NCBI GenBank assembly: GCA_049509515.1
Contig: JBEKZV010000011.1
Span: 63,737 to 127,736 of the forward strand
Source: Thermoguttaceae bacterium
GTDB taxonomy: Bacteria; Planctomycetota; Planctomycetia; Pirellulales; Thermoguttaceae
Length of the DNA stretch: 64,000 bases
Reading direction: 5' to 3'
In this document: positions 1,451 to 49,281 of the stretch, in pieces
Layout: the number at the start of each line of letters is the position of its first letter
Numbering within the stretch: position 1 is the stretch's first letter
Position numbers and translations under genes: made by a program
The notes under the pieces: generated by a model
Told to the model about the DNA's origin: nothing
Database searches by the model: none
What the model saw: the letters and a program-made list of their open reading frames with translations, nothing else

Positions 1451-3073
1451 TCAGAAGATGATTTGGAACCGCGTGTAGAGCGCGTCTTCTCTGCTGAACG
1501 GGTTCACGACGTTGCCGATTTTCACCGGGCTTGCGAACGTGGCATGTTCCCAGTTGAATTGCGCCCGGGCCCACTTGTTCAAGTACCAGTTGAAGCCCAA
1601 GGTCGTCTCCGCGGCTTCGGGGCTCGAGCGGTTGGAGCTGCCCGCGGTCTCGGTGGCGAGTCTCGCCGTAAACGCCTCCTGGCCGACTTCCAGCCTTTCG
1701 ACGCGGAATACCAGTTCCCAGGCCCCCGGCGAAGTGATCGGCGCGCAAGGGTTGAAGGGACGGATCGGATCGATCTGTTGGGTGTAGTCGGTCCGCTGCT
1801 CCCCCGTCAGGAGATAAGTCACCATAAGGTAATAACCGTCGGTGGGCACCTCCACGATGGGCTTCGTGGCCGAGAGTTGCAGCATCTGGTCCTCTTGATA
1901 GTACTGCCAAGCCATCCCCAACGAGTGGTAGAAGTATACCACTTCCGGACTGATGCGATCGCGAACTCCGTTTTCCAACACGCCGGTATTGTAGGCGAAC
2001 CAGGTCACGGTAGCCGGCGTGGTTATGATGGACGGGTTCGTTGTGGGGCCGAGCGCCTCCTTCTCGACGCCCACGCCGCCGGATATCCCGACCCCGAAAC
2101 CGCGCAGAATCTCCCACCCTTCCGGATCGTTGAAAGGACGGCAGGCGATGCGACCGTTGAAGTTCTTGTGGTTGCTTGTATCGATCGTGCTGTCGTTTTG
2201 GTCGCCATTGGAAACGGCGACCCCATACTCGAACCGGTCGTCAAACAGCTTATGGCCGTGGATCATGACTCCTTCATCCCGCTGCGGCACCAGTTGATCG
2301 ATCATCGAGCGTTCCATGGTCGGCACGTAACGGTCCTGGATCAGTTGTTCGTAGCTGAACGGCTGCTTGAACTTGCCCACTTCGAATTGAAGTGCATCCC
2401 AGTAATGGACGTTCATATAGGCGTCGGTGATCGATTTGGATATCGTGCTCCCGGCGAAATCCGGCAACAAGCGAAACTCGTAGTAATCGAGCATCGTCGC
2501 CTCGATACCGAGCCGCGCGCGGCGGATGAGGAACGTATCCGGGCTGCCCGTGACCGGACTGCCCGCCACCAGCGGATTCGCGGTTGTGGACGTGTCGACG
2601 GGAGTAAGAAATCCGCGAAAATCGGCCTGGAGTTGGCCCGTGATGCGCAACAGGAACGCCTTATCGGCGGACTGCACGAAAAAGCCCTCATTCCAGCCGG
2701 CAGAACTCGTAGCGGAGGGGATGACCTCGCCGCCGGCCGGCGCAAGGGAAGCGTTCGCAGTGAACTGCTCGGCGGCCCCGCTGGGCAACATTGCGGCCGG
2801 CGCCGCGGCGGGAGCGGCCGGATCGCCCGCCGGCCATGAGACCGGCCCGGTTGGCGGCGGATTGGGGTTGCGTGCGTCTCGCAATTGCCGGACGACCGCT
2901 TCCAGATCCTGGACGCGTTGTTGGAGTTCCGCCACGGAAGCCGTGTTCGCATCCTGGCCGAGCGCATAGCCGGGCGCCGGCGCCTCCTGGCCGCGTGCCC
3001 CTGCCGGGGCCAGCACGGCAGCCAGGGCTGCGGCCCACAAGGAGAGACTCGTCTTGAAAACCCGCCCGCACAT
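1451..3073 (-). CDS. OprO/OprP-like (phosphate-selective porin O/P family) outer-membrane beta-barrel
   Basis: The 591-aa ORF is 1451..3226. The likely start is the internal Met at 3073, which gives a signal peptide MCGRVFKTSLSLWAAALAAVLAPAGA. A coiled-coil segment follows the signal, the body is aromatic-rich with alternating residues, and the C-terminus is ...YTRFQIIF (terminal Phe, typical of outer-membrane proteins). Confidence 0.7.
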   Translation of the reverse strand: MCGRVFKTSLSLWAAALAAVLAPAGARGQEAPAPGYALGQDANTASVAELQQRVQDLEAVVRQLRDARNPNPPPTGPVSWPAGDPAAPAAAPAAMLPSGAAEQFTANASLAPAGGEVIPSATSSAGWNEGFFVQSADKAFLLRITGQLQADFRGFLTPVDTSTTANPLVAGSPVTGSPDTFLIRRARLGIEATMLDYYEFRLLPDFAGSTISKSITDAYMNVHYWDALQFEVGKFKQPFSYEQLIQDRYVPTMERSMIDQLVPQRDEGVMIHGHKLFDDRFEYGVAVSNGDQNDSTIDTSNHKNFNGRIACRPFNDPEGWEILRGFGVGISGGVGVEKEALGPTTNPSIITTPATVTWFAYNTGVLENGVRDRISPEVVYFYHSLGMAWQYYQEDQMLQLSATKPIVEVPTDGYYLMVTYLLTGEQRTDYTQQIDPIRPFNPCAPITSPGAWELVFRVERLEVGQEAFTARLATETAGSSNRSSPEAAETTLGFNWYLNKWARAQFNWEHATFASPVKIGNVVNPFSREDALYTRFQIIF

Positions 3074-3496
3074 CTTTCCCCTCCGAGAAGGATGCAACGC
3101 TCCGTCGCTCCCCGCCTGAAGGAAATACAGTCCTCCCCGGCATAGCCCGCAGCAGCGGCGCCCGCAGTCCTCCACGTTTCTTTGATCGAAACGGCAAATG
3201 CGTGAACTTCGCTGTTTCAATGACAAACGGCGCGTCTGGACCCTGCGCCGCGCGGCACTTTCAGTACATCGCGAACCATCCGATTCCTCCGCGATTCCGG
3301 CCTTTCCGGCAATGCGGGTTGTGTCGATCGCGCGGCCGCTACAAGCGGCAGAGAGCGTTCTTTCGCAACCGGCGTGCCGACCCGCAAGAAAGCACCGCGC
3401 CGGCCACCCCCGCGGAGAGTGGGTAATCTGTGCCGAAGGTATCGCCGGTGCGCGGCGATCCGCCGCCCGCAGGCCGTCGGCCTTGAAGGCCGGCCG

Positions 3497-5548
3497 TCAC
3501 CGCGGATGGTCGGCCGTGCCGGGCAACGGGGCGCTCTTCCCGCTCTGTGCTTCGACGTTGGTGCCGACGGGCGAAAGGACCGACGCGATCGACTCGACCA
3601 GGCGTTCGCGGGGGACGGGCTTCGTCAGGTGGACGGCAAAGCCCGCTTCCTGGCTCCGCAAGATGTCCTCCGCCTGCCCGTAGCCGCTCAGCGCAATTCC
3701 GGGAAACTTGCGCCCTTGCGAGCGCAACTGGCGCATCAGGTCGTGCCCGCTGCCGTCCGGCAATCCCAAATCGCTGACGAGCAGGTCAAAGGGGTGCCGG
3801 TCGGCCAGCTCCAGTGCCGTGGCCACGTCGCCCGCCGTTTCGACCTCGTGCCCGTCCGCGGTCAACACCTGGCACATCAACTTCGCCGTGACGCCGTGGT
3901 CTTCGACCAGCAGGATTCGTAGCGGGCCGACGGCGGGTTTGCGGGACGCGCCTGCGGGCGCCCCGGCGGGGGCGAGCGTTTCGGCCTGGCCGGGGGCCGC
4001 AGCCAACGGCAGCAGGACGCGGAACGTCGCGCCCTTGCCCCGGCCCTCGCTGCTGGCCTCGATGCTGCCGCCGTGCATCTGGACCATCGCTTTGCTGATC
4101 GCCAGGCCCAATCCCAACCCGCCGAACTGCCGGCTGATGGATCGCTCCGCCTGCTCGAAGGCGTTGAACAGCCGCGGCAGCGCCTGCGGGTCGATGCCGA
4201 TGCCGCTGTCGCTGACTTCCACAGCCACGCGCCCCTGCCCGTCGAGGCGGCAGCGGACGCCCACGCAGCCCTCGCGCGGCGTGAACTTGATGGCGTTCTT
4301 CAAGAGATTCCAGAACACCTGCTGGAGACGGGTGATGTCGGCTTCCACCCAGTACGGCGCGTCCGGCCCCATTTCCACGCCGAACTTCAGTTTTCGCGCT
4401 TCGATGTCGGGCCGGCACACCTCGACGGCATAGTCGATCACCATGCCGAGGTCCACTCGCTGTTTGTAGAGCTCGACCGTGCCCCGCGAAATCCGCGTAA
4501 TGTCCAACAGGTCGTCGATCAGCCGGGCTTCCATCTCGGCGCTGCGGCGGACGATCTGCAGCGTCTCGCGCATGTCCCGGTCCAAGTCCTTTCGGTCTTG
4601 GAGCATCGACACGCCCATCACCACGGGCGCCAGCGGCGTGCGCAGCTCGTGGCTCAGGACGGCCAGGAAATAATCCTTGGCGCGGTTGGCGAGCTCGGCG
4701 ACGGCCTTGGCCCGCTCGGCCGAATCCTTCGCTGCGCGGAGCTCGGCCTCCATTTGCTTCCGCTCGCTGATGTCCTGGACCAGGACCAGAATGCAATCCA
4801 GCGTACCATCGTCCCTCCTCATGCACTGTGCCGAGAGGCTGGCGTAGACGATCTTGCCTTTCTTGCAGACGAAGCGTCGATCCGCGACATAGCCTTTGAT
4901 GACGCCGCCCAGCATCCGCTGGAACTGCGCCTCGTCGCCGGGCAAGTCGTCGGGATAGGTCAAGTCGGTCCAGGCTTTCTTGGTCAGTTCCTCTTCCGCA
5001 TAGCCGAGCATCCGGCACAGGCGATGGTTGACCTCGATCCAATCCTTGTCCGCCGACAACATCGCCATGCCCACCAATCCTTGCTCGAAATACCCGCGGA
5101 ACCGCTGCTCGCTTTCGAGCAGCCATTGCTCGGCCCGCTGGCGATCGGCAATCTCCTTTTGCAGCCCGCGATTGGCGTCCGCCAGCTCGGCATGCGCGGC
5201 CTCGGTCCGGCGACGGCTCGCGTGCAGCGATTCGCTCAGCAGGGCCACGACGACGCCCACGAAAAGATACAGCCCGAGGCTGACCTGGTGTTCCAGATCG
5301 TGGATCACGAACGATCCCCGCGGCTGGATGAACAAGTAGGTCGCCAACAGGGCGCCGGACACGAGGGCCAGCAAGGAAGGGCCAAGACCGCCGTACCAGG
5401 CGGTCAACATGATGGCCACGAAATACGCGGAGAAAGGCGCCGCATCCTCCAGCGCCGGGTCGAGCATCTTCCGCAGCAGCGTCGCCAGCACGGTGGCGAC
5501 GACGGCCACCCCGTATCGCAACAGCAGCGAACGCCGGGTTCTCGACAT
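3497..5548 (-). CDS. Hybrid sensor histidine kinase / response regulator (N-terminal membrane sensor, PAS, HisKA, HATPase_c, C-terminal receiver)
   Basis: 683 aa. Contains an N-terminal KdpD-like membrane sensor segment and a PAS-like region. HisKA H-box LSHELRTPL. HATPase motifs NLLKNAIKFT and GGLGLGLAISK. C-terminal REC domain ILLVEDHGV...LLVSDLGLPDGSG...HLTKP. Only 42 bp separate it from the upstream membrane-fusion gene. Confidence 0.85.
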   Translation of the reverse strand: MSRTRRSLLLRYGVAVVATVLATLLRKMLDPALEDAAPFSAYFVAIMLTAWYGGLGPSLLALVSGALLATYLFIQPRGSFVIHDLEHQVSLGLYLFVGVVVALLSESLHASRRRTEAAHAELADANRGLQKEIADRQRAEQWLLESEQRFRGYFEQGLVGMAMLSADKDWIEVNHRLCRMLGYAEEELTKKAWTDLTYPDDLPGDEAQFQRMLGGVIKGYVADRRFVCKKGKIVYASLSAQCMRRDDGTLDCILVLVQDISERKQMEAELRAAKDSAERAKAVAELANRAKDYFLAVLSHELRTPLAPVVMGVSMLQDRKDLDRDMRETLQIVRRSAEMEARLIDDLLDITRISRGTVELYKQRVDLGMVIDYAVEVCRPDIEARKLKFGVEMGPDAPYWVEADITRLQQVFWNLLKNAIKFTPREGCVGVRCRLDGQGRVAVEVSDSGIGIDPQALPRLFNAFEQAERSISRQFGGLGLGLAISKAMVQMHGGSIEASSEGRGKGATFRVLLPLAAAPGQAETLAPAGAPAGASRKPAVGPLRILLVEDHGVTAKLMCQVLTADGHEVETAGDVATALELADRHPFDLLVSDLGLPDGSGHDLMRQLRSQGRKFPGIALSGYGQAEDILRSQEAGFAVHLTKPVPRERLVESIASVLSPVGTNVEAQSGKSAPLPGTADHPR

Positions 5549-5590
5549 CGGCTTCCTCCCAATCCTCGACGGAGGTTCCCGGCAGCGGGA

Positions 5591-7000
5591 TCATTGAGCT
5601 GCTTTCTGGGCGACCTGTACGGTTTGGCCGTCCGTCAGCTCGCTGAGGTCGGCCAGGATGACCTGCTCATCGCCCGTAACCTTCCGCCAGGAATCGCCGG
5701 TCTTAACGCGGTCGATCTCGATCCACGTTCCGTCGCTGACGCCCACCTGCACCGAGGTCTTGACGGCCTTTGTGCCGCGGAGCAGGTAGCAATAGGTCTG
5801 ATTGCCCGACCCCATTGTCGCTTGTTGCGGCACGGCGTACACGTTGGACCGCTGGACGAGCACCTTGGCGTAGACGTACAGTCCGGGCCGCAGGCCATCC
5901 TTGACGGGCAAGTCGATCTCCGCCCGCAGCGTATGGTTCTTCTCTCGTATCGCCCATGAGGTGCGGGTCACGGTGGCGGGTATCTGCAAGCCGCTCAACG
6001 CTTGGGCCCGCACCACGGCCTTGGTCCCCGGCTGCACGTAACGGGCCTTCTCCTCGGGAACGTCCACGAAAACCCGCACCAGGTCGTTGCGCACCACCAC
6101 GAAGATCGCGGAGGGATTGGCGGTCGATTTGTCGCCCATGACCGCCTGCACGTAGTCCTGGGTGTTGGCGTTGCGGTCCGTCACCACGCCGTCGTAGGGG
6201 GCGGTCACTTTGGTATAGGCCAGCATGGCGGCCGCCATGCGCTCGTCGGCCTTGGACACCTTGACCTTGGCCTTTTGGGTCTCCACGTCGATCTTGGCCT
6301 TTCCCAGGTTGGCCTCGGCGGTCACTCGATCCGCTTCCCGCGCGGCCACGGCGGCCACCGCGGCGTCGCGGGCGGCTTTGCTCGAATCGAGTTGCCTCTG
6401 CGTCTCGGCGAGCACCTGCCTGTCCACAACCTTCTCCATGACCATCTGGGTCAGGCGTTGCACCTCGGACTCCCAGCGGACGACCTCGGCCTGGAACTTG
6501 CCCACGTTGGCTTTGGCCTCGGTCACCTGGGCGATCGCCGTCTGCACGTTGCTCTCGGCCACCTTCACCAACTGCCCGGTCTGCTCGAGCCGCGTTTCGT
6601 CCCACTCGACCTGTGCCGCCTTCCGCTGGTGGTCTTCGTCCAGCTCGGGAACGTCTATCTCCACCAGGAGATCGTCCTTTTTCACCGCGTCCCCGATGTC
6701 CACGTAGAAATGCTTGATGAACCCGGAGACCTTGGCAAAAATCGCGGTTCGCTCGAAGGCCTCCACGGATCCGGGGTTGTCGATGGCGTAGTCGATGGTC
6801 CGCAGCTCGGGTTTGACGACGTGTACCACGGCGGCGCCGTTGCCGGAACGCCCTGCCTCCGCCTGCCCGTAATCGCCTTTGCGGCAACCTATCGCCAGGG
6901 CGGCCAGGACCGCCAGGCCCAAGACACCGCCGGCCGCAACGCCGCATGAGGCTCGCCGCGCGTGGGCGGGCGTTCGCTCGGTCGAAGGCAAATTCCGCAT
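5591..7000 (-). CDS. RND efflux periplasmic adaptor (membrane fusion protein, HlyD/AcrA family)
   Basis: 469 aa with an N-terminal TM or signal segment, a biotinyl/lipoyl-like segment (KVSGFIKHFYVDIGDAVKKDDLL), long coiled coils and a beta-barrel C-terminus. Its ATG overlaps the stop of the upstream RND permease at position 7000 (ATGnTGA-style overlap). Confidence 0.85.
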   Translation of the reverse strand: MRNLPSTERTPAHARRASCGVAAGGVLGLAVLAALAIGCRKGDYGQAEAGRSGNGAAVVHVVKPELRTIDYAIDNPGSVEAFERTAIFAKVSGFIKHFYVDIGDAVKKDDLLVEIDVPELDEDHQRKAAQVEWDETRLEQTGQLVKVAESNVQTAIAQVTEAKANVGKFQAEVVRWESEVQRLTQMVMEKVVDRQVLAETQRQLDSSKAARDAAVAAVAAREADRVTAEANLGKAKIDVETQKAKVKVSKADERMAAAMLAYTKVTAPYDGVVTDRNANTQDYVQAVMGDKSTANPSAIFVVVRNDLVRVFVDVPEEKARYVQPGTKAVVRAQALSGLQIPATVTRTSWAIREKNHTLRAEIDLPVKDGLRPGLYVYAKVLVQRSNVYAVPQQATMGSGNQTYCYLLRGTKAVKTSVQVGVSDGTWIEIDRVKTGDSWRKVTGDEQVILADLSELTDGQTVQVAQKAAQ

Positions 7001-10000
7001 CAGTAATAGTCTCCGCCAAGTACGGTTCGACGCTCATCGGGCTGGGGGCCTCCGTGGGCGGCCCCCGCCGCGTGCTCGCCGGTATCATAATGCCGGCTGG
7101 AAGAATCGTCGGGATCGATCGACGGCGAGACCTTCTTCTTGTCGCCCATCACCAGGGCGAAGATGGCCGGCACGACCAGGAGCGTGGCGAAGGTCGAGAC
7201 CAACAGCCCGCCGATCACGGCCCGCCCCAGCGGGGCGGTCATTTCGCTGCCCTCTTCCAGCGCCAAGGCCATGGGCAGCGTGCCCAGCAGCATGGCGATG
7301 GCCGTCATCAGCACCGGGCGGAGCCGGTCGCGAGCCCCTTCGACCGCCGCCTGCCGGACCGTCGCGCCGGCCCGCCAGTGATCGTCCATGAAGGTGGAGA
7401 GCAGCACCGAGTTGGAGACGGAGACCCCGACGCACATGATCGAGCCCATGAACGACTCGATGTTCAGCGTCGTGCCGGTCAGCAACAGGATGCTCGCCAC
7501 GCCGCACACCACGCCCGGCACCGCCCCGATGGACACCAGCCCCAGCCGGAACGACTGGAAGTAGCCGGTCAACATGACCAGGATCACCACGACGGACAGG
7601 GCCAGGCCGAAGGCCAGCGACTGGAACATCTCCGTCATGGGGGCGACCTGGCCGCGGACCTGGACCCGCACCCCGCGGGGCATCTCCCCGGCATCGGCGA
7701 TGGCCTGGGCCTCGGCAGCCTCGATGGCCTCGGCGATCTCGACCGACGCCCGCCCCAGGTCTTCCCCCTCGACGTTGGCCGTGATGCTCAGGTAGCGCTG
7801 CATGGAGCTGCGATCGATCTGGCCGGGCGTGGTGCCGGTGCGCACGCTGGCCACGTCGCGGACCACCAGGTTGCTGCTGTCGGTGACCTTTTCGATGGGC
7901 AACGTCTCCACCTGTTGGGCCCGGTTCATGCGCTGCAAAGGCACCTGGACCTGGACCTGGTAATCCACGCCGGTGTGCGGGTCGCGCCAGTAGTTTTTGG
8001 CCACGTAGCGGCTGGAGGAAGTGCCCACCAGAAGCGCGTCGGTAACGTCCTTGATCGTCACGCCGCTCAGTCCCGCCTTCTCGCGGTCGATGTCCACCTG
8101 CACGGTCGGGTAATCGAGTTGCTGGTAAAGCTGCACGTCTTTGAGGCTGGGAATGTTCTGCATCTCGTGGAGGACCCGCAGCGCGTGCCGGCGCACGTCG
8201 GCCAGCTCCGGGCCGACCACCATGACCTCGACCGGGGTCGGCGAGCCGAAGCTCATCACCTCGCTGACGATGTCGCCCGGCTCGAAACTGAAGGAAATCT
8301 TCGCGGCCATCGACTGCGCTTCCGCGGCCGAGTACCCGTTCCGCTGCAATTCCTCTTTCAGCCACGGGACCAGCTCGTCGGGCAACGCCTTGCGCAGGCG
8401 CTGGCGCAGGTCCGCAAGGTGCAGCTCCGTCCCCGGCGCCAACCGCACGCGCATCTGCCCGTCGTCCGGGCCGCGCATGAAGAGCAGCATGTTGTTCGTG
8501 GCGGTGTTGGTGGCCGCCATGCCGACGTAGCCCATCGAGATCGCCACCTGGTGCTCGGTTTGCTCGTCGAAGACCTCCAGCATTTTGAGCGCCAACTTCC
8601 GCGTGACTTCGTAGTCGGAGCCCGGGGGCGCGCGGAAGCGGATCACGAACTGGCCCGCGTCCACCTGCGGAAACAGCTCGGTGCCCACCCGGATGCCGAC
8701 TTGCCAGAAGAGCAGGCCGCACGCCGCGAGGTAGGCCGGGACGGCGATCCACCGCAGCCGCACCACGGCCCCGACCAGCACCGCGAAGGGGGGCAGAACG
8801 CGGTCGAAAAGGCCCTCCTTGTGGGCCGCCTCGCCCCCGTGTTTCATGAGCCAAACCGAGAGCACCGGCACGAGGGTGCTGGAGAGCAGGTAGGACGCGA
8901 CCATCGAGAATCCCACCGCCAGGGTCAGCGGCATGAACAGCGAGCGGACCGGCTCGTTCAAGATGAACGTGGGAATGAACACCGACAGGATGCAGAGCAT
9001 GGCCAACAGCCGCGCCGTGGCCGTGGCCGCAGCGGCCCGCCGCGCCGCGCGGGCCACGGAGTCCGTGCGCTTCATCTGCGCATGGGTATTCTCGATGGTG
9101 ACCACGGCCTCGTCCACGAGAATCCCGATCGCCAGTGCCAACCCGCCCAGCGACATGATGTTCAGCGTGTTCCCGGTAAGCCGCAGGCCGATCAAGGCCG
9201 AGGTCAGCGAGCAGGGAATGCTCACCAGCACCACGACCACGCTCCGCACGTCCTGGAGAAACAGCAGGATCATCAGCCCCGTCAGCCCGGCGCCGATCAG
9301 GCCCTCGGTGCCCACGCTCCAGATCGCCGCCTTCACTGTCGGCGATTCGTCGAACTCGTAACGCACGCGGACGTCCGGGGGCACCACGTCTTGGAAAAGG
9401 TGCATCGACTTGTGGATCAGGTTCACCACGGTCAGCGTCGAAGCGGTGTCTTTCTTCACCACCGGGATGTAGATCGACTTGCGGCCGTTCACCAGCGCGC
9501 AGCCGTAGTTGATGTCCGTGCCGTCCAGAATGCCGTTGTGGGCGGTGACCACGTCGCGAATGTAGACGTTGCTGCCGGGATGAATGGGAATGTCGCCCAG
9601 GGTCTGCGGATCGGCGACCATCGCGTTGGTGGGCACCAGCGGCATTTGCGCCGGCAAGTACAAATTGCCGGAAGGCGTGACCACGTTGCCGGTCCCCAAG
9701 GCATTCACCACGTCCTCGGGCGAGAAGTTGTGCGCCCGCAACCGATCGGGATCGACCGTAATCACGATCGCCCGCGTATTGCTGCCGAAGGGCGCGAACG
9801 AGATCGTGCCCGGCAACTGGGCAATCAGCATCGGCCGGATCTTTTGCATCCCCAGGTCGGCCAACTCCCCCAGCGGGCGGCTCTTGCTCTCCAGCACGAT
9901 GTAGCCGATGGGCACGTTCGCGGCGTCGAAACGCATTACGAAAGGCGGCAACACGCTGGGGGGCATCTGCCCGCGGGCACGGTTCGCCAGGCTGACCACC

Positions 10001-10320
10001 TGGGACATCGCCGCCGACATGTCCGTCTCCGGGTAAAAGGTCAGCTTCAACAGAACCATATTCTGAATGTTCTTGGATTCGATCCCCTTCAGCCCGTCCA
10101 CGTACTGGAAGTTCAACTCGTAGACGTTGGTGATGATCCCCTCGATCTGCGAGGGGTCCATCCCCGCGAAGTTGTTCAGCACATAGATTTGCGGGGCGTT
10201 GATGGCGGGGAAGATGTCCACCCGCATCTTGGTCAGGGCCAGTCCGCCCGCTCCCAGGACGGCCACGATAATCATGACCAGCGTGACCGGCCGCCGCATT
10301 GCGAACACGGTAAGGTTCAT
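7000..10320 (-). CDS. RND superfamily efflux permease (AcrB/CzcA/CusA superfamily)
   Basis: 1106 aa and predicted 12 TM segments. Begins MNLTVFAMRRPVTLVMIIVAVLGAGG. Contains the TM4 motif ALAIGILVDEAVVTIEN and two large periplasmic loops. Translationally coupled to the downstream adaptor gene. Confidence 0.9.
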   Translation of the reverse strand: MNLTVFAMRRPVTLVMIIVAVLGAGGLALTKMRVDIFPAINAPQIYVLNNFAGMDPSQIEGIITNVYELNFQYVDGLKGIESKNIQNMVLLKLTFYPETDMSAAMSQVVSLANRARGQMPPSVLPPFVMRFDAANVPIGYIVLESKSRPLGELADLGMQKIRPMLIAQLPGTISFAPFGSNTRAIVITVDPDRLRAHNFSPEDVVNALGTGNVVTPSGNLYLPAQMPLVPTNAMVADPQTLGDIPIHPGSNVYIRDVVTAHNGILDGTDINYGCALVNGRKSIYIPVVKKDTASTLTVVNLIHKSMHLFQDVVPPDVRVRYEFDESPTVKAAIWSVGTEGLIGAGLTGLMILLFLQDVRSVVVVLVSIPCSLTSALIGLRLTGNTLNIMSLGGLALAIGILVDEAVVTIENTHAQMKRTDSVARAARRAAAATATARLLAMLCILSVFIPTFILNEPVRSLFMPLTLAVGFSMVASYLLSSTLVPVLSVWLMKHGGEAAHKEGLFDRVLPPFAVLVGAVVRLRWIAVPAYLAACGLLFWQVGIRVGTELFPQVDAGQFVIRFRAPPGSDYEVTRKLALKMLEVFDEQTEHQVAISMGYVGMAATNTATNNMLLFMRGPDDGQMRVRLAPGTELHLADLRQRLRKALPDELVPWLKEELQRNGYSAAEAQSMAAKISFSFEPGDIVSEVMSFGSPTPVEVMVVGPELADVRRHALRVLHEMQNIPSLKDVQLYQQLDYPTVQVDIDREKAGLSGVTIKDVTDALLVGTSSSRYVAKNYWRDPHTGVDYQVQVQVPLQRMNRAQQVETLPIEKVTDSSNLVVRDVASVRTGTTPGQIDRSSMQRYLSITANVEGEDLGRASVEIAEAIEAAEAQAIADAGEMPRGVRVQVRGQVAPMTEMFQSLAFGLALSVVVILVMLTGYFQSFRLGLVSIGAVPGVVCGVASILLLTGTTLNIESFMGSIMCVGVSVSNSVLLSTFMDDHWRAGATVRQAAVEGARDRLRPVLMTAIAMLLGTLPMALALEEGSEMTAPLGRAVIGGLLVSTFATLLVVPAIFALVMGDKKKVSPSIDPDDSSSRHYDTGEHAAGAAHGGPQPDERRTVLGGDYY

Positions 10321-10761
10321 GCCGGCCCACCTTCAGATCAGCCCAAGGAATCGGTCACTTTCAATCAATTATATGTGTCCGCACACGCCTGTCGCCAGGC
10401 ACCCGAAGACCGCCGGCTGCGGAACCTCCGGATGTGCGCCCCATTAAACCGTTCCGCTCTAACGAGTTGGCACCCCAGAGAGGCAAGCTCGCGGTGCCTC
10501 GGGTTTGCAAGCCGGCGGCACGCTCGACAATCATACGCCTGGCGAGATGGGTAATTTGGGAGATGTGTATCGAGGGCTGTTGGGGGTTGCCAGCGGGATC
10601 AACTCTAGGGGCCATGCCGTTACAACCGATACGATTGATAGGCTCTAGCAGTTCGTCAGAGTCGTTGCACCGTCACCATTGTCGCATTCTCCCAACAGTA
10701 GCACACTCGGCCCGGTTTGGGGAGGCGGACGCGGTGGCGGCGGCCCGTGGGGGGAGCGGTA

Positions 10762-12411
10762 ATGACGGCCACGATGCTGCCAAGACTGGCATTGCAGATT
10801 GCCATTCTGCTCGTGCTGAATGAAATCTGTGGTCTGGCCGCGCCCCCCTACGTGCCGGAACCTCCCGAGGCCATTGCGGCCCCCCCGCCACAGGCGCCCT
10901 TGCCGCCAAGACCGCTTCCGGGTGATGCCCAGCCCGACCAAATCTTCACATCGCCCGTCCTCAGCGAGAATTCACAGCCGCCGCCGATTCCGCCGGCCCA
11001 ACCCGCCAGATCGGACCAGCCTCTGCCGATCAACCTGGCCACGGCGCTGGGCTTGTCGAACGCGCGGCCGCTGGTGATCGCCTTCGCCCAGGCAAGCGTG
11101 GAAGAAGCGGCTGCCCGGCTACAGGGCGCCCAAGTCCTCTGGTTGCCGGACATCAATGCCGGCACGGAGTACTACCGTCACTCCGGAACGGATCAGTCGA
11201 CCGACGGCACGGTGATCCTCGACAACAAGCACTCCTTTTTTGCGGGCGGCGGGGTGACTCTCAACTTTGGAATCACCGACGCCATTTTCAGGCCGCTGGC
11301 CGACCGCCAGGAATTGGCCGCCCGCGAGTCGGACCTTCAGGCGGCGCAGAATGATGCGCTGCTGTCGGTTGCCCTGGCGTATTTCGACGTGCAGCAGGCC
11401 CGCGGCACCTTGGCCGGCACGCTGGACGCGGCGGCCAGGGCCGACGCGCTGGTCCGCAAGACCGCCGGCCTTGCCAAGGGGTTGGTGGCGGAAATCGAAG
11501 TGGACCGCGCCCGCGACCTGGCGTTCGATTTGCGACAGCAAATCGCCGCAGCGCGGGCCAATTGGCGGGTCACGAGCGCCCGGCTGACCCGCGTGCTCCG
11601 CTTGAACCCCGCCGCGGTGGTCGTTCCCCTGGAGCCGCCGCATCTTCAAGTGTCGCTGATCGCGCCCGGATTCAAGGTTGCCGATCTGCTCCCTGTCGGC
11701 TTGGCAAACCGCCCGGAGCTGGCCGCGCAGCGCGCCCTGGTGCAGGCCAGCTATGAGCGGGTGCGGCAGGAGCGGTTCCGCCCCTTTCTTCCCAGTGTGG
11801 TCGTGGGGGGGGAAAACGGACCCGGCGGCGCCTTCAACGGCGGCCTGTTCGGCGGTGGCACCGACAGCGGCCCGCAACTCTACGGCGGTCGCTTCGACGT
11901 GGACGTGGGAGTCGTCTGGACGCTCGACAACCTGGGCGCGGGCAACAGGTCCCTGGTCCGCCAGCGGATCGCTCAAGAACAGCGAGCCGCAATCGACTTC
12001 GCCAACGTCCAAGACCAGGTGGCCCAGGAAGTGGTCCAGGCGCACGCCCAAATGGAGGCGACGGCCGCCGAGGTCGATTACGCCATGACCGTCGTGAAAG
12101 AAGCGGTCATCACCTACAACGGCACGTTGCGGGGCCTCGATCCCCACCAGGTCGGCGACCTGCTGCAACTGGTCAGTCGCCCGCAGGAAGCCGTGGCGGC
12201 GCTCGAGCAGTTGAATCGGGCCTATGGCATCTATTTCGCCGCCGTCAACGGCTACAATCGCGCTCAATTCCAGCTCTATCAGGCCTTGGGCTTTCCCGCC
12301 CGAATTCTCGTGTGCGACCACCCGGTGGGAAAGGTGCAATCGCTGGACACGTCTCGGCCGCCGGGCATGGCCCCCGTCGGCCCCTTCATCCGTTCTTGCC
12401 CCTGCCCGTAA
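10762..12411 (+). CDS. TolC-like outer-membrane efflux protein (OEP family)
   Basis: Listed as an ORF from 10717. The internal Met at 10762 gives a signal peptide MTATMLPRLALQIAILLVL. Two OEP repeats with long helical segments. Transcribed divergently from the RND/adaptor operon, so the 10321-10761 spacer probably holds both promoters. Confidence 0.8.
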   Translation: MTATMLPRLALQIAILLVLNEICGLAAPPYVPEPPEAIAAPPPQAPLPPRPLPGDAQPDQIFTSPVLSENSQPPPIPPAQPARSDQPLPINLATALGLSNARPLVIAFAQASVEEAAARLQGAQVLWLPDINAGTEYYRHSGTDQSTDGTVILDNKHSFFAGGGVTLNFGITDAIFRPLADRQELAARESDLQAAQNDALLSVALAYFDVQQARGTLAGTLDAAARADALVRKTAGLAKGLVAEIEVDRARDLAFDLRQQIAAARANWRVTSARLTRVLRLNPAAVVVPLEPPHLQVSLIAPGFKVADLLPVGLANRPELAAQRALVQASYERVRQERFRPFLPSVVVGGENGPGGAFNGGLFGGGTDSGPQLYGGRFDVDVGVVWTLDNLGAGNRSLVRQRIAQEQRAAIDFANVQDQVAQEVVQAHAQMEATAAEVDYAMTVVKEAVITYNGTLRGLDPHQVGDLLQLVSRPQEAVAALEQLNRAYGIYFAAVNGYNRAQFQLYQALGFPARILVCDHPVGKVQSLDTSRPPGMAPVGPFIRSCPCP

Positions 12412-12506
12412 CGGATCGCTAACATCTTCCCAGGTCCGATTTGCCGGGGCGGCCCGCGAGATTGGCGTCTTGGCCGGAAGTCGGCCGGGCAACGGATGTA
12501 GCGGAT

Positions 12507-12527
12507 GCGCGGGTTTCCCGCTTTCTG
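12507..12527 (+). terminator. Candidate intrinsic terminator downstream of the TolC-like gene
   Basis: Stem gcggg, loop ttt, stem cccgc, followed by tttctg, about 100 nt after the stop at 12411. Confidence 0.3.
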
Positions 12528-12782
12528 CCGCTGACGCCGGCCGCGCGGCCTGTTCTCCGGGTCCGCTTCTGCGGGCTGCGCCGGTGGTGCCGGTGCCCGG
12601 GCCGGCACACTCGTGAATTCGGCTAGCTTTCGCACGGAGCTAACAATTGTCGCCAAAGGCGAGGCCGATACAACCACTGCCCGCCTCAAAACGGTGCCTC
12701 GCGGCTTTTTCCGTGCCGCTGTTCCACCAGGAATTTGCGGCAGCGTCTCGCCCGGGAACTTGTAACAAGGGAGCGGAAAACA

Positions 12783-14516
12783 ATGAAATGGATTTCCACC
12801 GCGGCCATACTCGCGGCTTTGGGCATCGGCATGTCCGGAAGCCCGGCGATGGCCCAGCAAGGAAGCGACCCGCAGAACTTCGACTACCTGCGGGCGCGCA
12901 TGGACCAGCAGGATGCGGAAATTCGCCACCTCCACGAGGAGTTGGCGGCGGCGCTAGGGGGCACGCCCGCCACCCCGGCCGCCTATGCGAATCCGGACGG
13001 CACCATGCCGGCGCCAGTTGCCGCCGACCCGGTGGGCCAGTGGCCTCCCGGGGCCGCGGTGGTCGGCAGCGACATGCACGTCACGGCCAGCATGAAAGAC
13101 GGCTTGTTCTTGTGGCTGGAAACGCCCAACAAGGACTTCACCATGCACATCGGCTACTGGATGCAACTGGACAACGTCTACTGGAAAGAGTCGCCGGATC
13201 TGAAGACCGCCGCGACTGCCCGGACAGGCGCCCCGTTCGGAGCGATTAGCGGTCCCGCGAGCGGCGGCATCGGCGAGCTGGAAGACGGCGAGTACTTCCG
13301 CCGCATCCGCCCGTTCCTCGAGGGCACCTTCTGGGAAACCGGCGAGTATCGCCTCATTCTGGCCCTGGAAAACGACCAGTACAGCGACACCGGGTTTGAT
13401 GAATTCTGGGTCGGCGAAACGAAGATCCCCGTGATCGGGAGCTGCCGCATCGGGCACGTCAAGGACCCGATGGGCCTGGAAGGCGATATGACGGCCTCCA
13501 GCCGCTGCATGACCTTCATGGAACGCTCGTCCTACTCCGAGGCCATCGAGCTGAACCAGAACTTCCTCACCGGCATCTGGATGAGCAACAATTACCTCGA
13601 CGAGCACGTGACGTGGGAGTTCTGCGCCGCTCGTCCCGATCAAGGCGCCTCCAGCGGGAGTTACTTCGGCGACGGCCAGTCGGCCGTGCAAGGCCGCATC
13701 ACGGCCCTGCCTATCTATGAGGACGAAGGCCGGCAGTTGCTGCACTTTGGCGTCTCGGCCGGGTGGCGCGATGGAGCGACCAATGGAACGATAGCCGATC
13801 ACCTGTTCCAGTTGCGGGCCCGGCCAGAGTTGCGCGACGACGACCCAGCCGGCTCCCCGTCCGGCGGCCAGGCCCTCCCGAATGCCGACAGCAACCGCAT
13901 GGTCGACACCGGGGCAATCGCGGCCAAGGAAGAATACCTGATGGGCCTCGAAGCCTTGTACATCCGCGGGCCCCTCTCGATCCAGGCCGAGTATGGCTGG
14001 AACTGGATCGACGGCGCCTATGGCATCGCGTATAGCAAGAGCGCGGTCACGCATTTTGCCAACGGCGCTACCGAGGACTACGTGTTCAACGGCGGTTACG
14101 TCCAGTTGGCGTATACCCTGACCGGCGAGAACCGCGCCTACGACAGGCGGATCGGCACCCTCGCCCGCGAGTACTACGGCCATAGCGGCCCGTACGAGAA
14201 TGCCTGGCTCACCCGTGATGCCGACGGCAACTTCATCTGGGGCCGCGGCGCGTGGGAAATCGCCGCCCGCTACTCCTACGTAGACCTCAACTCCGGCAGC
14301 AGCCCCAACAACATCCAGGGGGGCATGATGAACGGCTTCACCCTCGGCCTGAACTGGTATCTGAACAACAACCTGAACATCATGCTCGATTGGGTCTACG
14401 ACGACCGTTACGACCTGCCCGCCACAGAGACGAACGCCAAGGGCGTCGTCATCAACCCGGGCACCAACCCCGGCCACACCAACGGCCTGGGGATCGAGGT
14501 CCAGTTCCAACTCTAA
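12783..14516 (+). CDS. Second OprO/OprP-like porin, paralogous to the 1451..3073 gene
   Basis: Listed as an ORF from 12735. The likely start MKWISTAAILAALGIGMSGSPAMAQQ (signal peptide) is at 12783 and is preceded by agggag. Same architecture as the first porin: signal peptide, coiled coil, then beta-barrel. C-terminus ...GIEVQFQL. Confidence 0.7.
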   Translation: MKWISTAAILAALGIGMSGSPAMAQQGSDPQNFDYLRARMDQQDAEIRHLHEELAAALGGTPATPAAYANPDGTMPAPVAADPVGQWPPGAAVVGSDMHVTASMKDGLFLWLETPNKDFTMHIGYWMQLDNVYWKESPDLKTAATARTGAPFGAISGPASGGIGELEDGEYFRRIRPFLEGTFWETGEYRLILALENDQYSDTGFDEFWVGETKIPVIGSCRIGHVKDPMGLEGDMTASSRCMTFMERSSYSEAIELNQNFLTGIWMSNNYLDEHVTWEFCAARPDQGASSGSYFGDGQSAVQGRITALPIYEDEGRQLLHFGVSAGWRDGATNGTIADHLFQLRARPELRDDDPAGSPSGGQALPNADSNRMVDTGAIAAKEEYLMGLEALYIRGPLSIQAEYGWNWIDGAYGIAYSKSAVTHFANGATEDYVFNGGYVQLAYTLTGENRAYDRRIGTLAREYYGHSGPYENAWLTRDADGNFIWGRGAWEIAARYSYVDLNSGSSPNNIQGGMMNGFTLGLNWYLNNNLNIMLDWVYDDRYDLPATETNAKGVVINPGTNPGHTNGLGIEVQFQL

Positions 14517-14569
14517 CCATCGAGCGCGCGTGACATCACCGCGCTTGGTTTTCACGGGAGACAATCGCA

Positions 14570-15226
14570 ATGAACAAGTATCTTGTCGGATTTCTCGGAC
14601 TCGCCGTGCTGGGCGGCCTGCTCGCGGGGCAAGCCGCCGCGGACCCGGCGGCCTGCGGCACGGCGGCCTGCGGCGCAGCGACGTGCGGCGCAGGGGGCTG
14701 TGGCACGTGCGGCGCCACCTGCGGCTGCGGCGCACACTGCGGCTGCGGCGCCCAAGGCGGCTGCTGCCCGCACTGCGGCTGCTGCCTGGTCCCGGTGTGC
14801 CACGTGTACTGCACCACCAAGCAGGTCACGGAGCACAGGTACCTTTGCACCTGCGAAGAGAAGTGTGTCCCTCGTCCCGTGTGCCCCTGCCACAAGTGCG
14901 GCGACTGCGGCACTTGCGGCGGCTGCGGCGGCGACGCCTGCAACAACGGCTGCCAGGAATCCTGCGGCAAATGCTGCATTCACGAGGTACGCAAGCTGGT
15001 GGTGTACCCGTGCGTCAAGGAAGTGCCGGTCCGCAAGTGCTGGATCGAGTGGGTCTGCCCGAAGTGCGGCGATTGCTGCAACGGTCAGCCGGCCGCGACC
15101 CCGGCGCAACCGACGCCGGCGCCGACTCCCACCGCCCCGGCCCCGGCCGTCAGGCTGCCGGGCCCGCCGCAGGCGACGGGCGTGACGCCTTTGTTTTCGG
15201 TAAGCGGCCTCGTTCAGACACCCTGA
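14570..15226 (+). CDS. Secreted cysteine-rich repeat protein (~35 Cys in 218 aa) with a Pro/Thr/Ala-rich C-terminal tail
   Basis: Signal peptide MNKYLVGFLGLAVLGGLLAGQAAA. The mature region is made of C-G-x-x repeats (ACGTAACGAATCGAGGCGTCGATCGCGAHCGCG...CPHCGCC...CPCHKCGDCGTCGGCGGDACNNGC...) encoded by tandem tgcggc units. Tail QPAATPAQPTPAPTPTAPAPA. An RBS precedes the gene (gggagacaatcgcaATG) and a terminator hairpin follows it. Confidence 0.6.
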   Translation: MNKYLVGFLGLAVLGGLLAGQAAADPAACGTAACGAATCGAGGCGTCGATCGCGAHCGCGAQGGCCPHCGCCLVPVCHVYCTTKQVTEHRYLCTCEEKCVPRPVCPCHKCGDCGTCGGCGGDACNNGCQESCGKCCIHEVRKLVVYPCVKEVPVRKCWIEWVCPKCGDCCNGQPAATPAQPTPAPTPTAPAPAVRLPGPPQATGVTPLFSVSGLVQTP

Positions 15227-15263
15227 GTGACGTTAGTTCCCTAGTTCCCTGAAGTCCACGGCC

Positions 15264-15305
15264 ACCGGCCGCCGGCGTCTTCGTCGGCGGCCGGTCGCTT
15301 TTCTT
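15264..15305 (+). terminator. Intrinsic terminator after the Cys-rich gene (perfect 10-bp stem followed by a T-run)
   Basis: Stem ccggccgccg, loop gcgtcttcgt, stem cggcggccgg, followed by tcgcttttctt. It lies in the gap between the two convergent genes ending at 15226 and 15327. Confidence 0.45.
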
Positions 15306-15326
15306 GGGGAGTCGCGACAACACCAA

Positions 15327-17456: not shown

Positions 17457-17861
17457 TCACGGCTGCTGCCAGTCCTCAAGCGGCAGTCCTGGGATGCGGC
17501 TGAACTCCTCCGTATTATGCGTCACCAGGGTGCATCCGCTGGCCAGGGCGATGGCCGCAACCTGGAGGTCGTAGGGTCCGATCGGCGCGCCCAGGGTCTC
17601 CAAGCGACGACGAACACCGGCATACTGCTCGGCCGCCGCATCGTCAAAAGGAAGGCTGCGGTAGGGCCGCACCAAGGCTTCGACCTTGCCCCGGTTGGCA
17701 GCCGGGTTCGCACTGCGGAGGCAGCCGTAATACAGTTCCGCCACGACCACGGAACAGACGCACACGTCCCCGGGCTGCCCCGCGCGAAGCCGGGCCACGA
17801 CCGGCGAGCTCGGGTTGCGCAGGAACGCCACCCAGACGTTCGTGTCCAGCAGGTACGTCAC
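17457..17861 (-). CDS. vapC: PIN-domain toxin VapC (type II toxin-antitoxin)
   Basis: 134 aa beginning MTYLLDTNVWVAFLRN. Carries the conserved PIN acidic residues (D5, E, D, ...THNTEEF). Its start overlaps the stop of the upstream antitoxin gene by 4 nt. Confidence 0.85.
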   Translation of the reverse strand: MTYLLDTNVWVAFLRNPSSPVVARLRAGQPGDVCVCSVVVAELYYGCLRSANPAANRGKVEALVRPYRSLPFDDAAAEQYAGVRRRLETLGAPIGPYDLQVAAIALASGCTLVTHNTEEFSRIPGLPLEDWQQP

Positions 17862-18112
17862 GCCATCCCCACGGGCTTGGGCAACTCGCCCTGTGGCGGG
17901 CGGACGAAGGTCTCGTCGTCGATGGAGCCGGCCAGACTAAAGTAGTCGGGCGACCAGCCGGGCTGGTCGGGCGCTCCTGGCGAGGGCCCAGTCGCTTTCG
18001 GCTGAACGACCAGCACCACCTCGAAATCCGCCTCGGGCGCTCCCAGCGGAATGCTGACGTGCAGCACGCCGTCCTTCCCGGTGCGCTGGGTCACTCGCAA
18101 GGTCTGCCCCAT
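17858..18112 (-). CDS. vapB: VapB-family antitoxin partner of VapC
   Basis: The 117-aa ORF is 17858..18211. The likely start is ATG at 18112 (MGQTLRVTQRTGKDGVLHVSIPLG...), which has a GGAGG Shine-Dalgarno upstream. C-terminal motif WSPDYFSLAGSIDDETFVRPPQGELP, typical of a cyanobacterial/planctomycete VapB family. Overlap with vapC indicates translational coupling. Confidence 0.6.
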   Translation of the reverse strand: MGQTLRVTQRTGKDGVLHVSIPLGAPEADFEVVLVVQPKATGPSPGAPDQPGWSPDYFSLAGSIDDETFVRPPQGELPKPVGMA

Positions 18113-18313
18113 AGCGCCTCCCTCGTTGGAATGAGCTTGCTCCGCCCGTTCTGCCGCTGTATCCTGCGTTGCCGCCTTCCCTTTCTCCCCATCCGCTTCG
18201 GTTCGGGACACCCGCCCGCGACACCCTATAGTCTATGCCCAGGGGCAGAGAGCCGCAAGGCGGGTCGCACCTTTGTTTCCGGGAGCACAAAACCTTCAAG
18301 GCGGGCGGGCTAT

Positions 18314-40351: not shown

Positions 40352-41007
40352 CCGCTGTCATCGTCCGGCAAGGCTTGAAAACCAAGATTAGCGAGTATCG
40401 GCCGCACGTCCCTACCGGGAATCTCGTACTCGTTTCCTACGGGCGTCGGCAACGAGTTGTGGCGGGCGGGCGGCGAGTTGCTCTGCCACCGGCTCCCGGA
40501 CCGTGCCGGCGATTCCCGGCTTCTTCGACCTCAAGAGCCTTACCGGGCGGCTTGTCCACATGCCGGCCTTTGAAGACGAGGCGGCTGCCCACCCAGCTTG
40601 CTATGTAGCACACGGCTTATCTTCCAAGTAATCATGCCGGCGAAACCAGAATAGGCGTTACATTCGGCAGTTTATGGCAAGACAGTTGGCGACAAACGTG
40701 ACGTTCTTGTCGAAAAATCTGACCCTTTCGGGTCAATCTTGGCGACTAAACGAATAAAATGCTACAAGCCGAGCAAGACACATAACGGTTGCAAACCCTA
40801 CCCAATGATTCCCCGACAAGTCCCGACCGGCCCCAGTCGAAAGACGTGACTGTTGCAGTAACGCCTTTAAGGCGAGGCCGGCCGGAAACACCCCCCAAGC
40901 GATCCCGCCAGTAGAAACGAAGGGAAACAGCAGATCGATCTCGGTGGAGGATCCCGCCGAGAGCATCCATGTCCACCCGACGGGGTGGCCCACAAGGAGG
41001 TGGCACT

Positions 41008-42516: not shown

Positions 42517-42589
42517 CCGAGGTTTTACCGCCCGCGGGCGCGCCGACCCGCGGGCTTCTTGATCACCGTTCGCGGCAGGGGGGCTGCTC

Positions 42590-46383: not shown

Positions 46384-46384
46384 G

Positions 46385-48733: not shown

Positions 48734-48744
48734 GCGTCGCTGGC

Positions 48745-49281
48745 CTACTGCTTGTCGTAAGCCGGGTGCGGCTTGTGCTGCTGGTCGATGTGGCAGCGGA
48801 CGCAAACGTTCTGCGGCGCGATCTTATAGATCGATCCCCGCACTTCCTTGTCCTGGTCCGGCGAGAGGACTTTCACGTTTTCGTATTTCTTGGCGATGAC
48901 GGCGTGCTGGCTGCCCGGGCCGTGGCAGGCCTCGCACGTGGTGCCGGCGAGGTTGGGGGTCGAGGTCGCATCCTTGAAACCGGTGGCGGCCCCGTAGCCC
49001 GTGGAGTGGCAAATCAGGCACTCGGCGGTGCCGCGATACTTGGCCGGCACGCTCTCGAATGCCTCTTTGGCGTGCTTGGTCTTCTTCCATGCCATGTAGG
49101 CCTTCAGGTGGCAGGCGGCGCACTGCTTGGTTCCCGTGTAGGTCTGGTCCGCCGGGGGATGGACCTCCGTGACCGGTTCCGCCGGCGGCTGCGACCGCGC
49201 CGGCAGCCCCCACAGCATCCAAATTGCAGCCAACGTCCCTGCCCCAAGCAGTGCCAACCAATCACACCTCGGCCTGACCAT
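48745..49281 (-). CDS. Periplasmic tetraheme c-type cytochrome
   Basis: 178 aa with a signal peptide. Heme motifs CAACH, CLICH, CEACH, CVRCH. It is the first gene of the minus-strand cytochrome operon; 11 nt separate it from the next gene. Confidence 0.8.
   Translation of the reverse strand: MVRPRCDWLALLGAGTLAAIWMLWGLPARSQPPAEPVTEVHPPADQTYTGTKQCAACHLKAYMAWKKTKHAKEAFESVPAKYRGTAECLICHSTGYGAATGFKDATSTPNLAGTTCEACHGPGSQHAVIAKKYENVKVLSPDQDKEVRGSIYKIAPQNVCVRCHIDQQHKPHPAYDKQ

Follow-up and report, generated by a model that had tools for sequence, protein, structure and literature searches.

A 64,000-nucleotide stretch of a Thermoguttaceae genome (contig JBEKZV010000011.1, positions 63,737 to 127,736 of the forward strand; hereafter the window) carries, at 14570..15226 on the forward strand, an open reading frame (ORF) whose product is extraordinarily rich in cysteine. 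Is such an ORF a gene at all, and if so, what might a protein of this kind do in a planctomycete? The ORF is confirmed exactly at these coordinates, with an ATG start and 218 codons before the stop; a hidden Markov model (HMM) of the family matches in this frame only, and the public gene calls give the identical product. An initial annotation, made from the sequence alone, had put the cysteines at about 35 of 218 residues, arranged as CG repeats and CxxC/CC pairs. Our count is 36 cysteines and 32 glycines, with 16 CG dipeptides, four CC pairs and 10 CxxC motifs. Cysteine thus makes up 16.5% of the protein, compared with a mean of 1.7% over the 33 called genes of the window, and none of the window's other six-frame ORFs with 150 or more residues (172 in all) reaches this fraction. 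The answer set out below is that the ORF is a real gene, belonging to an unnamed family that is so far known only from planctomycetes and is new at the level of both sequence and fold. At about even odds (a probability near 0.5), the small Sec-exported cysteine-rich proteins of this family serve one clade of OprO/P-type outer-membrane β-barrels as dedicated partners.

A cysteine-rich family and its conserved core

A word-indexed protein search recovers 31 homologues at E-values of 1e-64 to 1e-8, and a profile search of 1.84 billion cluster representatives (clusters at 50% identity) retrieves 409 at E<=1e-3 and 99 at E<=1e-10. Gene calls on 19 public contigs, drawn from several independent metagenomes, give an identical 218-residue product in an unchanging context. 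Among members that carry a taxonomic label, one named homologue and all 11 genome loci, the latter from species-representative genomes labelled Thermoguttaceae, Pirellulales, Planctomycetaceae or Planctomycetia, come from metagenome-assembled genomes (MAGs) of Planctomycetota. The closest labelled relative (L002) is annotated as a SPRUCE MAG; if this is the SPRUCE peatland site, the setting may be a reducing one, a point for the metal-binding alternative discussed below. The initial annotation recognised no named family, and the searches bear this out: no Pfam or NCBIfam model matches the window protein at E<=1, a Pfam-A hmmscan of 115 family members at E<=10 yields no consistent family match, and a PDB sequence profile search with the window protein returns only noise (E ~0.8).

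In an alignment of 154 members, the conserved part is residues 62–170, a core of about 105 residues, and not the CG repeats. Ten of the core cysteines are near-invariant (C66, C69, C71, C77, C95, C99, C113, C132, C163 and C166, each found in 88% or more of the sequences) and six are semi-conserved, with C65, C81, C93, C107 and C110 occurring in 71–79% and C157 in 62%. To these are added the conserved non-cysteine positions G70, K84, Y91, P101, L143, E151 and W161. The core is bracketed by two CxxCG knuckles, at 66–70 and 163–167, each found in about 95% of members. A low-complexity artefact, for which the initial annotation had allowed should the homologues lack a common cysteine spacing, is not what is seen here, because that spacing is strongly conserved across the homologues.

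The window protein can be read as a series of segments, all encoded on the forward strand. A Sec-type signal peptide, assigned by eye from the sequence, spans residues 1–24 (14570..14641) and precedes the repeats, as had been proposed: the N-terminus, MNKYLVGFLGLAVLGGLLAGQAAA followed by DP, has the n/h/c layout with an AxA site and is conserved in the homologue alignment, and cleavage would fall between AAA and DP. The same N-terminus has neither a lipobox nor a twin-arginine (RR) motif, on which grounds a lipoprotein and Tat export were rejected. It is followed by a variable N-terminal Cys/Gly/Ala/Thr repeat segment with nine cysteines (residues 25–61; 14642..14752), which has a metallothionein-like composition, is hypervariable in the alignment, coincides with arrays found by Tandem Repeats Finder and is modelled by AlphaFold2 with a predicted local distance difference test score (pLDDT) below 50. 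The first part of the conserved core (residues 62–104; 14753..14881) then supplies the CCPHCGC knuckle (C65/C66/C69/G70/C71) and the first β-hairpin, which carries C77, C81, C93, C95, C99, K84, Y91 and P101. In the inter-hairpin loop (residues 105–131; 14882..14962), the conserved C107/C110/C113 are joined by a lineage-specific CG(D/T/G)CG expansion; column occupancy drops to 0.23–0.6 at residues 115–128, pLDDT is about 50, and a 9-nt array lies in the DNA. The second part of the core (residues 132–170; 14963..15079) contains C132, the second β-hairpin with L143, E151, W161 and the C135–C157 pair, and the second knuckle, C163-P-K-C166-G. The protein ends in a cysteine-free tail (residues 171–218; 15080..15223) with 13 prolines, eight alanines and seven threonines, predicted to be disordered; the description of it as a PT-rich, linker-like tail was apt. 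The tail holds the subfamily motif region PGPPQATGVTPL and terminates in GLVQTP. Motifs of the form PPPK(T/S)T..APLPP recur in the close subfamily and a hydrophobic-basic end, for example ILGRLFRR, in the distant one, and some close homologues are wholly without a tail.

AlphaFold2 predicts two long β-hairpins, residues 74–101 and 135–162, with pLDDT of 86–93 from an alignment of 25 sequences and 92–97 from one of 115; the repeats and the tail are modelled with low confidence. A Foldseek search of the model against the PDB, a check that the initial annotation had proposed, gives no significant match: all E-values are above 1 and the only resemblances are to generic long hairpins of pore-forming toxins. 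Within the second hairpin, C135 and C157 covary, both being present in 64 sequences and both absent in 51, where they are replaced by Ala/Gly plus Trp. Judged by this joint gain and loss, the two probably form a cross-strand disulfide. The spacing of the putative pairs C77/C99, C81/C95, C132/C166 and C135/C163 is compatible with hairpin ladders. Haem binding was considered and rejected: the window protein has no canonical CxxCH, H78 and H108, which lie beside cysteines, are not conserved, and no cytochrome Pfam model matches.

The CG repeat that had been taken as the defining feature is therefore peripheral to the family. The repeats are lineage-specific expansions in two variable segments (residues 25–61 and about 115–128 of the loop), hypervariable in length, and distant relatives have neither; the N-terminal segment ranges from about 10 to 70 residues among homologues. 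Members contain from 9 to 46 cysteines with a median of about 20, which places the window protein near the top. At the DNA level, the gene has 15 TGCGGC hexamers and uses TGC for 34 of its 36 cysteine codons, so that a "near-tandem tgcggc array" was a fair wording, yet Tandem Repeats Finder reports imperfect arrays only (periods of 15, 18 and 9 nt, 73–81% matches), at 14646–14713 and 14708–14782, with the 9-nt array at 14897–14930. The suggestion that slippage in these repeats drives length variation did not hold up. Of seven contigs from independent samples, six agree completely (100% identity) in the 857 bp spanning the gene, and the seventh has one synonymous change (GTA to GTG) and no indel. 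With no indel in these contigs and with degenerate arrays, a slippage-driven contingency locus was rejected. The proposed comparison of repeat number thus gave a split result: repeat length differs greatly between species and does not vary across the seven sampled contigs, supporting slow expansion and contraction over evolutionary time and not rapid, phase-variation-like slippage.

The same composition makes the gene easy to miss. The GC content of the second codon position is raised by TGC and GGC codons, and for this reason a simple caller that scores the third minus the second position passed over the ORF. At another locus (L023, 466–813), where the DNA is intact, the public call retains only a 115-residue C-terminal fragment.

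Pairing with an OprO/P-type porin

The gene lies directly downstream of a porin gene on the same strand, an adjacency that the initial annotation had mentioned and that proved central to the locus. The porin ORF, at 12735..14516 (+), matches the Pfam model Porin_O_P (PF07396) with E=1.8e-33 and 116.7 bits, above the gathering score of 20.9, and is taken as the cognate of the cysteine-rich protein. It is read here from a TTG at 12735, and the public JGI/ENA calls begin at an ATG at 12783 and give 577 residues (MKWIS...). Behind an N-terminal signal peptide come a short helix resembling a coiled coil, a linker of Pro and Ala, and finally the β-barrel. The two genes form a bicistronic-looking unit: they are co-oriented, separated by a 53-nt spacer, and followed by one strong terminator, and the second has its own ribosome-binding site. 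The latter two elements are as first described: a Shine-Dalgarno-like GGGAG, read directly from the sequence at 14556..14560 (+), lies 9 nt 5' of the ATG, and the best terminator-like site of the region, at 15264..15305 (+), consists of a stem-loop (15264..15295) with a stem of 14 bp, 12 of them GC pairs, followed by a T-rich run. The same terminator-like scan found a weak 5-bp hairpin in the spacer (14528..14544, +), which could be a partial attenuator or could be of no significance. No sigma-70-like promoter was found in 12300–15600, and no regulatory RNA came to light when the entire window and the operon region were scanned with Rfam.

This arrangement is general in the family. In all 11 species-representative genome loci, the cysteine-rich gene lies directly behind a co-oriented Porin_O_P homologue, which answers the initial call to examine the neighbourhoods of planctomycete homologues. 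HMM scans of all loci provided 25 family members with genomic context; 21 are directly downstream of a porin in the same orientation and two further members (L016; L026/L027) are adjacent to a porin but divergent from it. Four loci (L004, L007, L009 and L012) have two complete pairs each. The pairing extends to distant members: in L012, a family member comes after each of two porins; L013 has the C-terminus of a porin, the cysteine-rich gene and a further porin; and in L014 a porin, the cysteine-rich gene, a membrane fusion protein (MFP), a resistance-nodulation-division (RND) permease and an outer-membrane efflux protein (OEP) follow one another in a single co-oriented run. The gap narrows to 24 bp on one contig (P0174).

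The two proteins also share a history. In a tree of the barrel domains, the partnered porins, that of the window included, fall in one super-clade, and five of six unpartnered paralogues in another clade. Distance matrices of the cysteine-rich core and the cognate porin correlate with a mirror-tree r of 0.76 (Mantel p~2e-4), and paralogous pairs within a genome sort alike in the two trees. The concordance of the trees implies that the pair has been duplicated as a unit and has co-diverged. A comparison for indels that would systematically set partnered porins apart from unpartnered ones showed only differences of 4–13 residues, too slight to be informative. Literature searches for a planctomycete porin with a cysteine-rich partner gave nothing specific.

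Several loci depart from the common pattern or add to it. The window itself has a second Porin_O_P paralogue at 1451..3226 (-) (E=6.6e-21), which lies in the unpartnered clade and has no cysteine-rich partner downstream. The sole unpartnered porin inside the partnered clade, in L008, has a group II intron reverse-transcriptase-like ORF directly downstream (~4800–6150, -), which suggests that its partner was displaced or disrupted by a mobile element. In the sub-lineage with divergent genes (L016 and L026/L027), the porin and the cysteine-rich gene are about 500–590 bp apart and rhodanese genes recur nearby; L026 also has an ArsR-type helix-turn-helix regulator in the vicinity, and L026 and L027 encode a large MACPF/Laminin_G protein. 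The solo member of L024 (8001–8513), with no porin within 8 kb, is situated between acyl-CoA dehydrogenase and esterase genes, and a stop-to-stop ORF upstream of it gives a second partial match to the family HMM. In L012, a 48-residue lipoprotein-like ORF (4477–4623, +) lies between a porin and its cysteine-rich partner, and a nearby secreted ORF of 135 residues (5259–5666, -) shares its C-terminal YPNRD. Elsewhere in that locus (1–2050), a PHO4 phosphate transporter and a metallophosphatase adjoin one of the pairs, the only locus that hints at a phosphate-related role of these OprO/P-type porins. In L025 (P0184), a frameshifted porin is fused to the cysteine-rich protein in the gene call; there and in P0013, frameshifted or over-extended calls in long-read MAGs have placed spurious "fusion" proteins of 281–405 residues, joining the porin C-terminus to the cysteine-rich protein, in public databases.

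Efflux genes form a second, looser association. Upstream of the porin and co-oriented with it lies a TolC-like outer-membrane factor, OMF1 (10717..12411, +), identified by the NCBIfam TolC family, by PF02321 OEP in public calls and by tblastn synteny; it is one of the RND1 genes, a set found again at homologous loci. The remainder of this set is divergent from OMF1 at 5591..10320 (-) and consists of an MFP (5591–7000) and an RND permease (7000–10320). Homologues of RND1 occur within 10 kb of the pair in about eight of the 11 close loci, in varying gene order, and RND genes are beside the pair also in L007 (an RND2-type pump) and L014. In the window, RND, MFP and OMF genes stand on either side of the pair, so that "next to efflux systems" was an accurate description. 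The RND pumps of the window score higher on multidrug-type than on CusA/CzcA models, with all NCBIfam scores below the curated cut-offs and thus too low to assign a substrate class.

A proposed envelope partner and its alternatives

On this evidence, the cysteine-rich protein is very probably coupled to the porin in function. That it is a physical, disulfide-stabilised accessory subunit of the porin is a tentative proposal for which the odds fall somewhat short of even. Following export by Sec, the core would fold into a rigid domain stabilised mainly by disulfides, in which cysteine clusters, namely the two CxxCG knuckles plus C107/C110/C113/C132, probably clamp the open ends of the hairpins. 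The core could then dock non-covalently on the cognate porin, at its periplasmic face or in its lumen, and the additional cysteines of the repeat segments, together with the Pro-rich tail, would provide a means to cross-link or tether the porin in an envelope rich in protein, cystine and proline. The pair may often work alongside an RND efflux system as a single envelope module. Planctomycete cell-wall preparations are known to contain cysteine-rich proteins (PMC8567305, PMC12673574). A bolder form of the proposal, in which porin and two-hairpin protein constitute an obligate two-component outer-membrane complex of a hitherto unrecognised accessory-subunit class, so far seen only in planctomycetes, with the hairpin domain plugging, gating or stabilising the barrel and the variable cysteine segments and Pro-rich tail stitching the porin into the envelope, is rather doubtful. 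Among the three roles that the initial annotation had offered, the disulfide-knotted structural protein gives the best fit, and metal binding is still a live rival.

Several observations weigh against a disulfide-stabilised partner of the porin. Beyond C135–C157, the putative cross-strand cysteine pairs show no clear covariation, the signal being mostly subfamily structure. The number of cysteines is even in 87 and odd in 67 of the 154 members, a misfit to a protein with all its disulfides intramolecular; this parity is equally compatible with free thiols, with intermolecular bonds and with metal ligation. An alignment of 13 partner porins and the unpartnered porin of the window has no conserved cysteine column, and a conserved covalent link to the porin is therefore unlikely. 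Two of the 25 members with context have no porin nearby (L015, on a short contig, and L024). Finally, since some close homologues lack the tail, tethering through it cannot be universal.

Barrels with a small partner are familiar from other outer membranes: LptD-LptE, MtrA-MtrB and RcsF-OmpA/C/F are plug-and-barrel or threaded pairs, often encoded together. The likeness is one of concept, a β-barrel with a small soluble partner in or through it, and may serve as an analogy for the planctomycete pair. The planctomycete pair is not homologous to any of these, its soluble partner is not a lipoprotein or a cytochrome, and, unlike the motifs of MtrA-like cytochromes, the CxxCH-like strings of that partner are not conserved.

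The first alternative, and the main rival, is that the protein binds or buffers metals in the periplasm through thiolate clusters, holding Cu(I), Zn, Cd or Ag that enters through the porin, or passing it to the RND pump; we regard this as unlikely. The models for such a role would be the metallothioneins SmtA and BmtA, and CusF, a small periplasmic protein of an RND system encoded in cusCFBA. The repeat segments, made of Cys, Gly, Ala and Thr with CxC, CxxC and CC motifs, do have the composition of metallothioneins, and like CusF the small protein is encoded beside RND efflux genes: RND, MFP and OMF genes adjoin the pair in about eight of 11 close loci, and the L014 run has a CzcB_C-type MFP. 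The spread from 9 to 46 cysteines with no bias toward even numbers is likewise what metal binding would allow. However, most of the family does without the repeat segments and keeps the link to the porin, and the conserved part is a confidently predicted β-hairpin fold, unlike apo-metallothioneins. No metallothionein Pfam model is matched by the 115 members at E<=10 or by the window protein at E<=1, and CusF gives no model match either. The histidines are not conserved. The pumps, with all their scores below the cut-offs, score nearer the multidrug than the CusA/CzcA type and are not identifiable as heavy-metal pumps, and no metal ATPase, metal sensor or riboswitch adjoins the pair. A Cys4 site built from the two conserved CxxCG knuckles, C66-P-H-C69-G and C163-P-K-C166-G, may be one form of such binding, as these resemble the sites of rubredoxin and zinc ribbons. 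The database matches are weak and far below significance (rubredoxin E=0.77; zinc-ribbon Pfam models in a few members), about 12 further cysteines are conserved here, and each knuckle lies at the open end of a hairpin about 28 residues long and not at the turn of a compact ribbon. Sec export of a cysteine-rich protein is also unusual for such sites; it usually brings oxidation in the periplasm, and C135–C157 behaves like a disulfide.

The second alternative, which we consider improbable, is that of a general disulfide cross-linked wall protein, comparable to the YTV or OmcA/OmcB proteins, whose adjacency to the porin reflects co-expression only. Variable cysteine numbers of random parity would suit intermolecular networks, as would a Pro-rich tail, and the wall preparations of planctomycetes are rich in cysteine-rich proteins, among them the YTV proteins, which are thought to rigidify the wall via their cysteines (PMC8567305, PMC10632474, PMC12673574). 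The YTV proteins (PF07639) and the labelled members of the present family are alike in being planctomycete-restricted, signal-peptide-bearing, cysteine-rich and proline-containing envelope proteins. The differences are that neither the window protein nor the 115 members match the YTV model even at E<=10, and that the YTV proteins have multiple YTV repeats where here there is a single two-hairpin core with a paired porin gene; the cited YTV papers make no mention of a porin pairing. In the same PVC superphylum, the chlamydial porin MOMP and the cysteine-rich OmcA and OmcB form a structural outer-membrane assemblage (PMC2811131), again a porin combined with cysteine-rich envelope proteins. Here too, the 115 members show no sequence or Pfam match to OmcA/OmcB (PF03503/PF03504) at E<=10, the window protein lacks the lipobox of a lipoprotein such as OmcA, a disulfide link in the manner of MOMP is not expected with partner porins that lack conserved cysteines, and the planctomycete genes form an adjacent, co-evolving pair. 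Co-duplication and co-divergence with one porin clade exceed what co-expression predicts, and members of this small family, often one to a locus, are not repeat-rich like the YTV proteins. These two systems, the YTV wall proteins and the MOMP/OmcA/OmcB complex, are the closest analogues in role; as a cysteine-rich envelope partner of a porin, the protein would probably be a variant of something known in the superphylum.

In the third alternative, the "porin" would be an outer-membrane translocon or scaffold dedicated to exporting the cysteine-rich protein to the surface or to threading its tail, by analogy with two-partner-like systems, FapF/FapC and RcsF-OmpA/C/F. Such systems share the gene order seen here, in which a small secreted protein comes after a barrel; the partner porins have their N-terminal coiled-coil-like segment and linker, the tail is a disordered stretch of about 48 residues with short conserved motifs at its end, and the sole weak fold resemblances, all with E-values above 1, are to long hairpins of oligomeric β-pores. 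Against this, the barrels match an ordinary diffusion-porin family, several close homologues are tailless, neither face of the hairpins, as read from the sequence, is uniformly hydrophobic, and the fold matches are not significant. A cargo or threaded client of the barrel is improbable. As for a non-functional GC-rich artefact or the precursor of small cysteine-rich peptides first entertained, here a ribosomally synthesised and post-translationally modified peptide, the composition is odd enough for one caller to have skipped the ORF and for a public pipeline to have called a 115-residue fragment in one contig, but these readings are effectively refuted by conservation and context: hundreds of clusters preserve in frame a non-repetitive, folded core of about 105 residues with its cysteine spacing, synteny is conserved, the sole population substitution is synonymous, the leader is a Sec signal peptide, and the neighbours are only porin, OMF, RND, MFP and toxin-antitoxin genes, with no maturase, cyclase, peptidase or protease among them.

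Other genes of the window and the meaning of the pairing

Two further features of the window are associated with its efflux genes. A hybrid histidine kinase with DUF4118, PAS, HisKA, HATPase and receiver domains (3497..5548, -) lies directly beside the MFP/RND1 genes and is a candidate regulator of the efflux/porin module. Between the OMF2 and the MFP/RND2 genes of a second efflux system, a PIN-domain (VapC-like) toxin gene is found at 17457..18211 (-), preceded by a small ORF that is likely its antitoxin; the same insertion is present in public contigs. Farther away, a cluster of multihaem c-type cytochromes occupies 40969..48805. It comprises a cytochrome with 39 cysteines and paired CXXCH motifs (40969–42516, +), one of NapC/NirT type (44908–46383, -) and one with MtrC/MtrF-like and cytochrome b561 domains (46385–48805, -), and the cytochromes flank a signal-peptide protein of 773 residues without a Pfam match (42590–44911, +). 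This cluster could be a porin-cytochrome-type module for extracellular electron transfer.

An unusual abundance of protein, cystine and proline in planctomycete envelopes has been known for decades, yet few envelope components have been identified. The present analysis provides an unannotated family of at least 409 clusters with a genomic rule, namely pairing and co-evolution with its own OprO/P-type porin, and a family model would improve annotation, this gene being prone to missed or truncated calls. The pairing suggests a concrete hypothesis of how the outer membrane is organised in a phylum for which genetic models are scarce, and a partnership with the porin may explain the frequent presence of RND efflux systems beside these loci. 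Should metal binding prove to be the function, the protein would be a rare case of a Sec-exported, metallothionein-like periplasmic protein. If instead it is an accessory subunit of the porin, it would give a molecular handle on the composition of the planctomycete wall and on the anchoring of the outer membrane.

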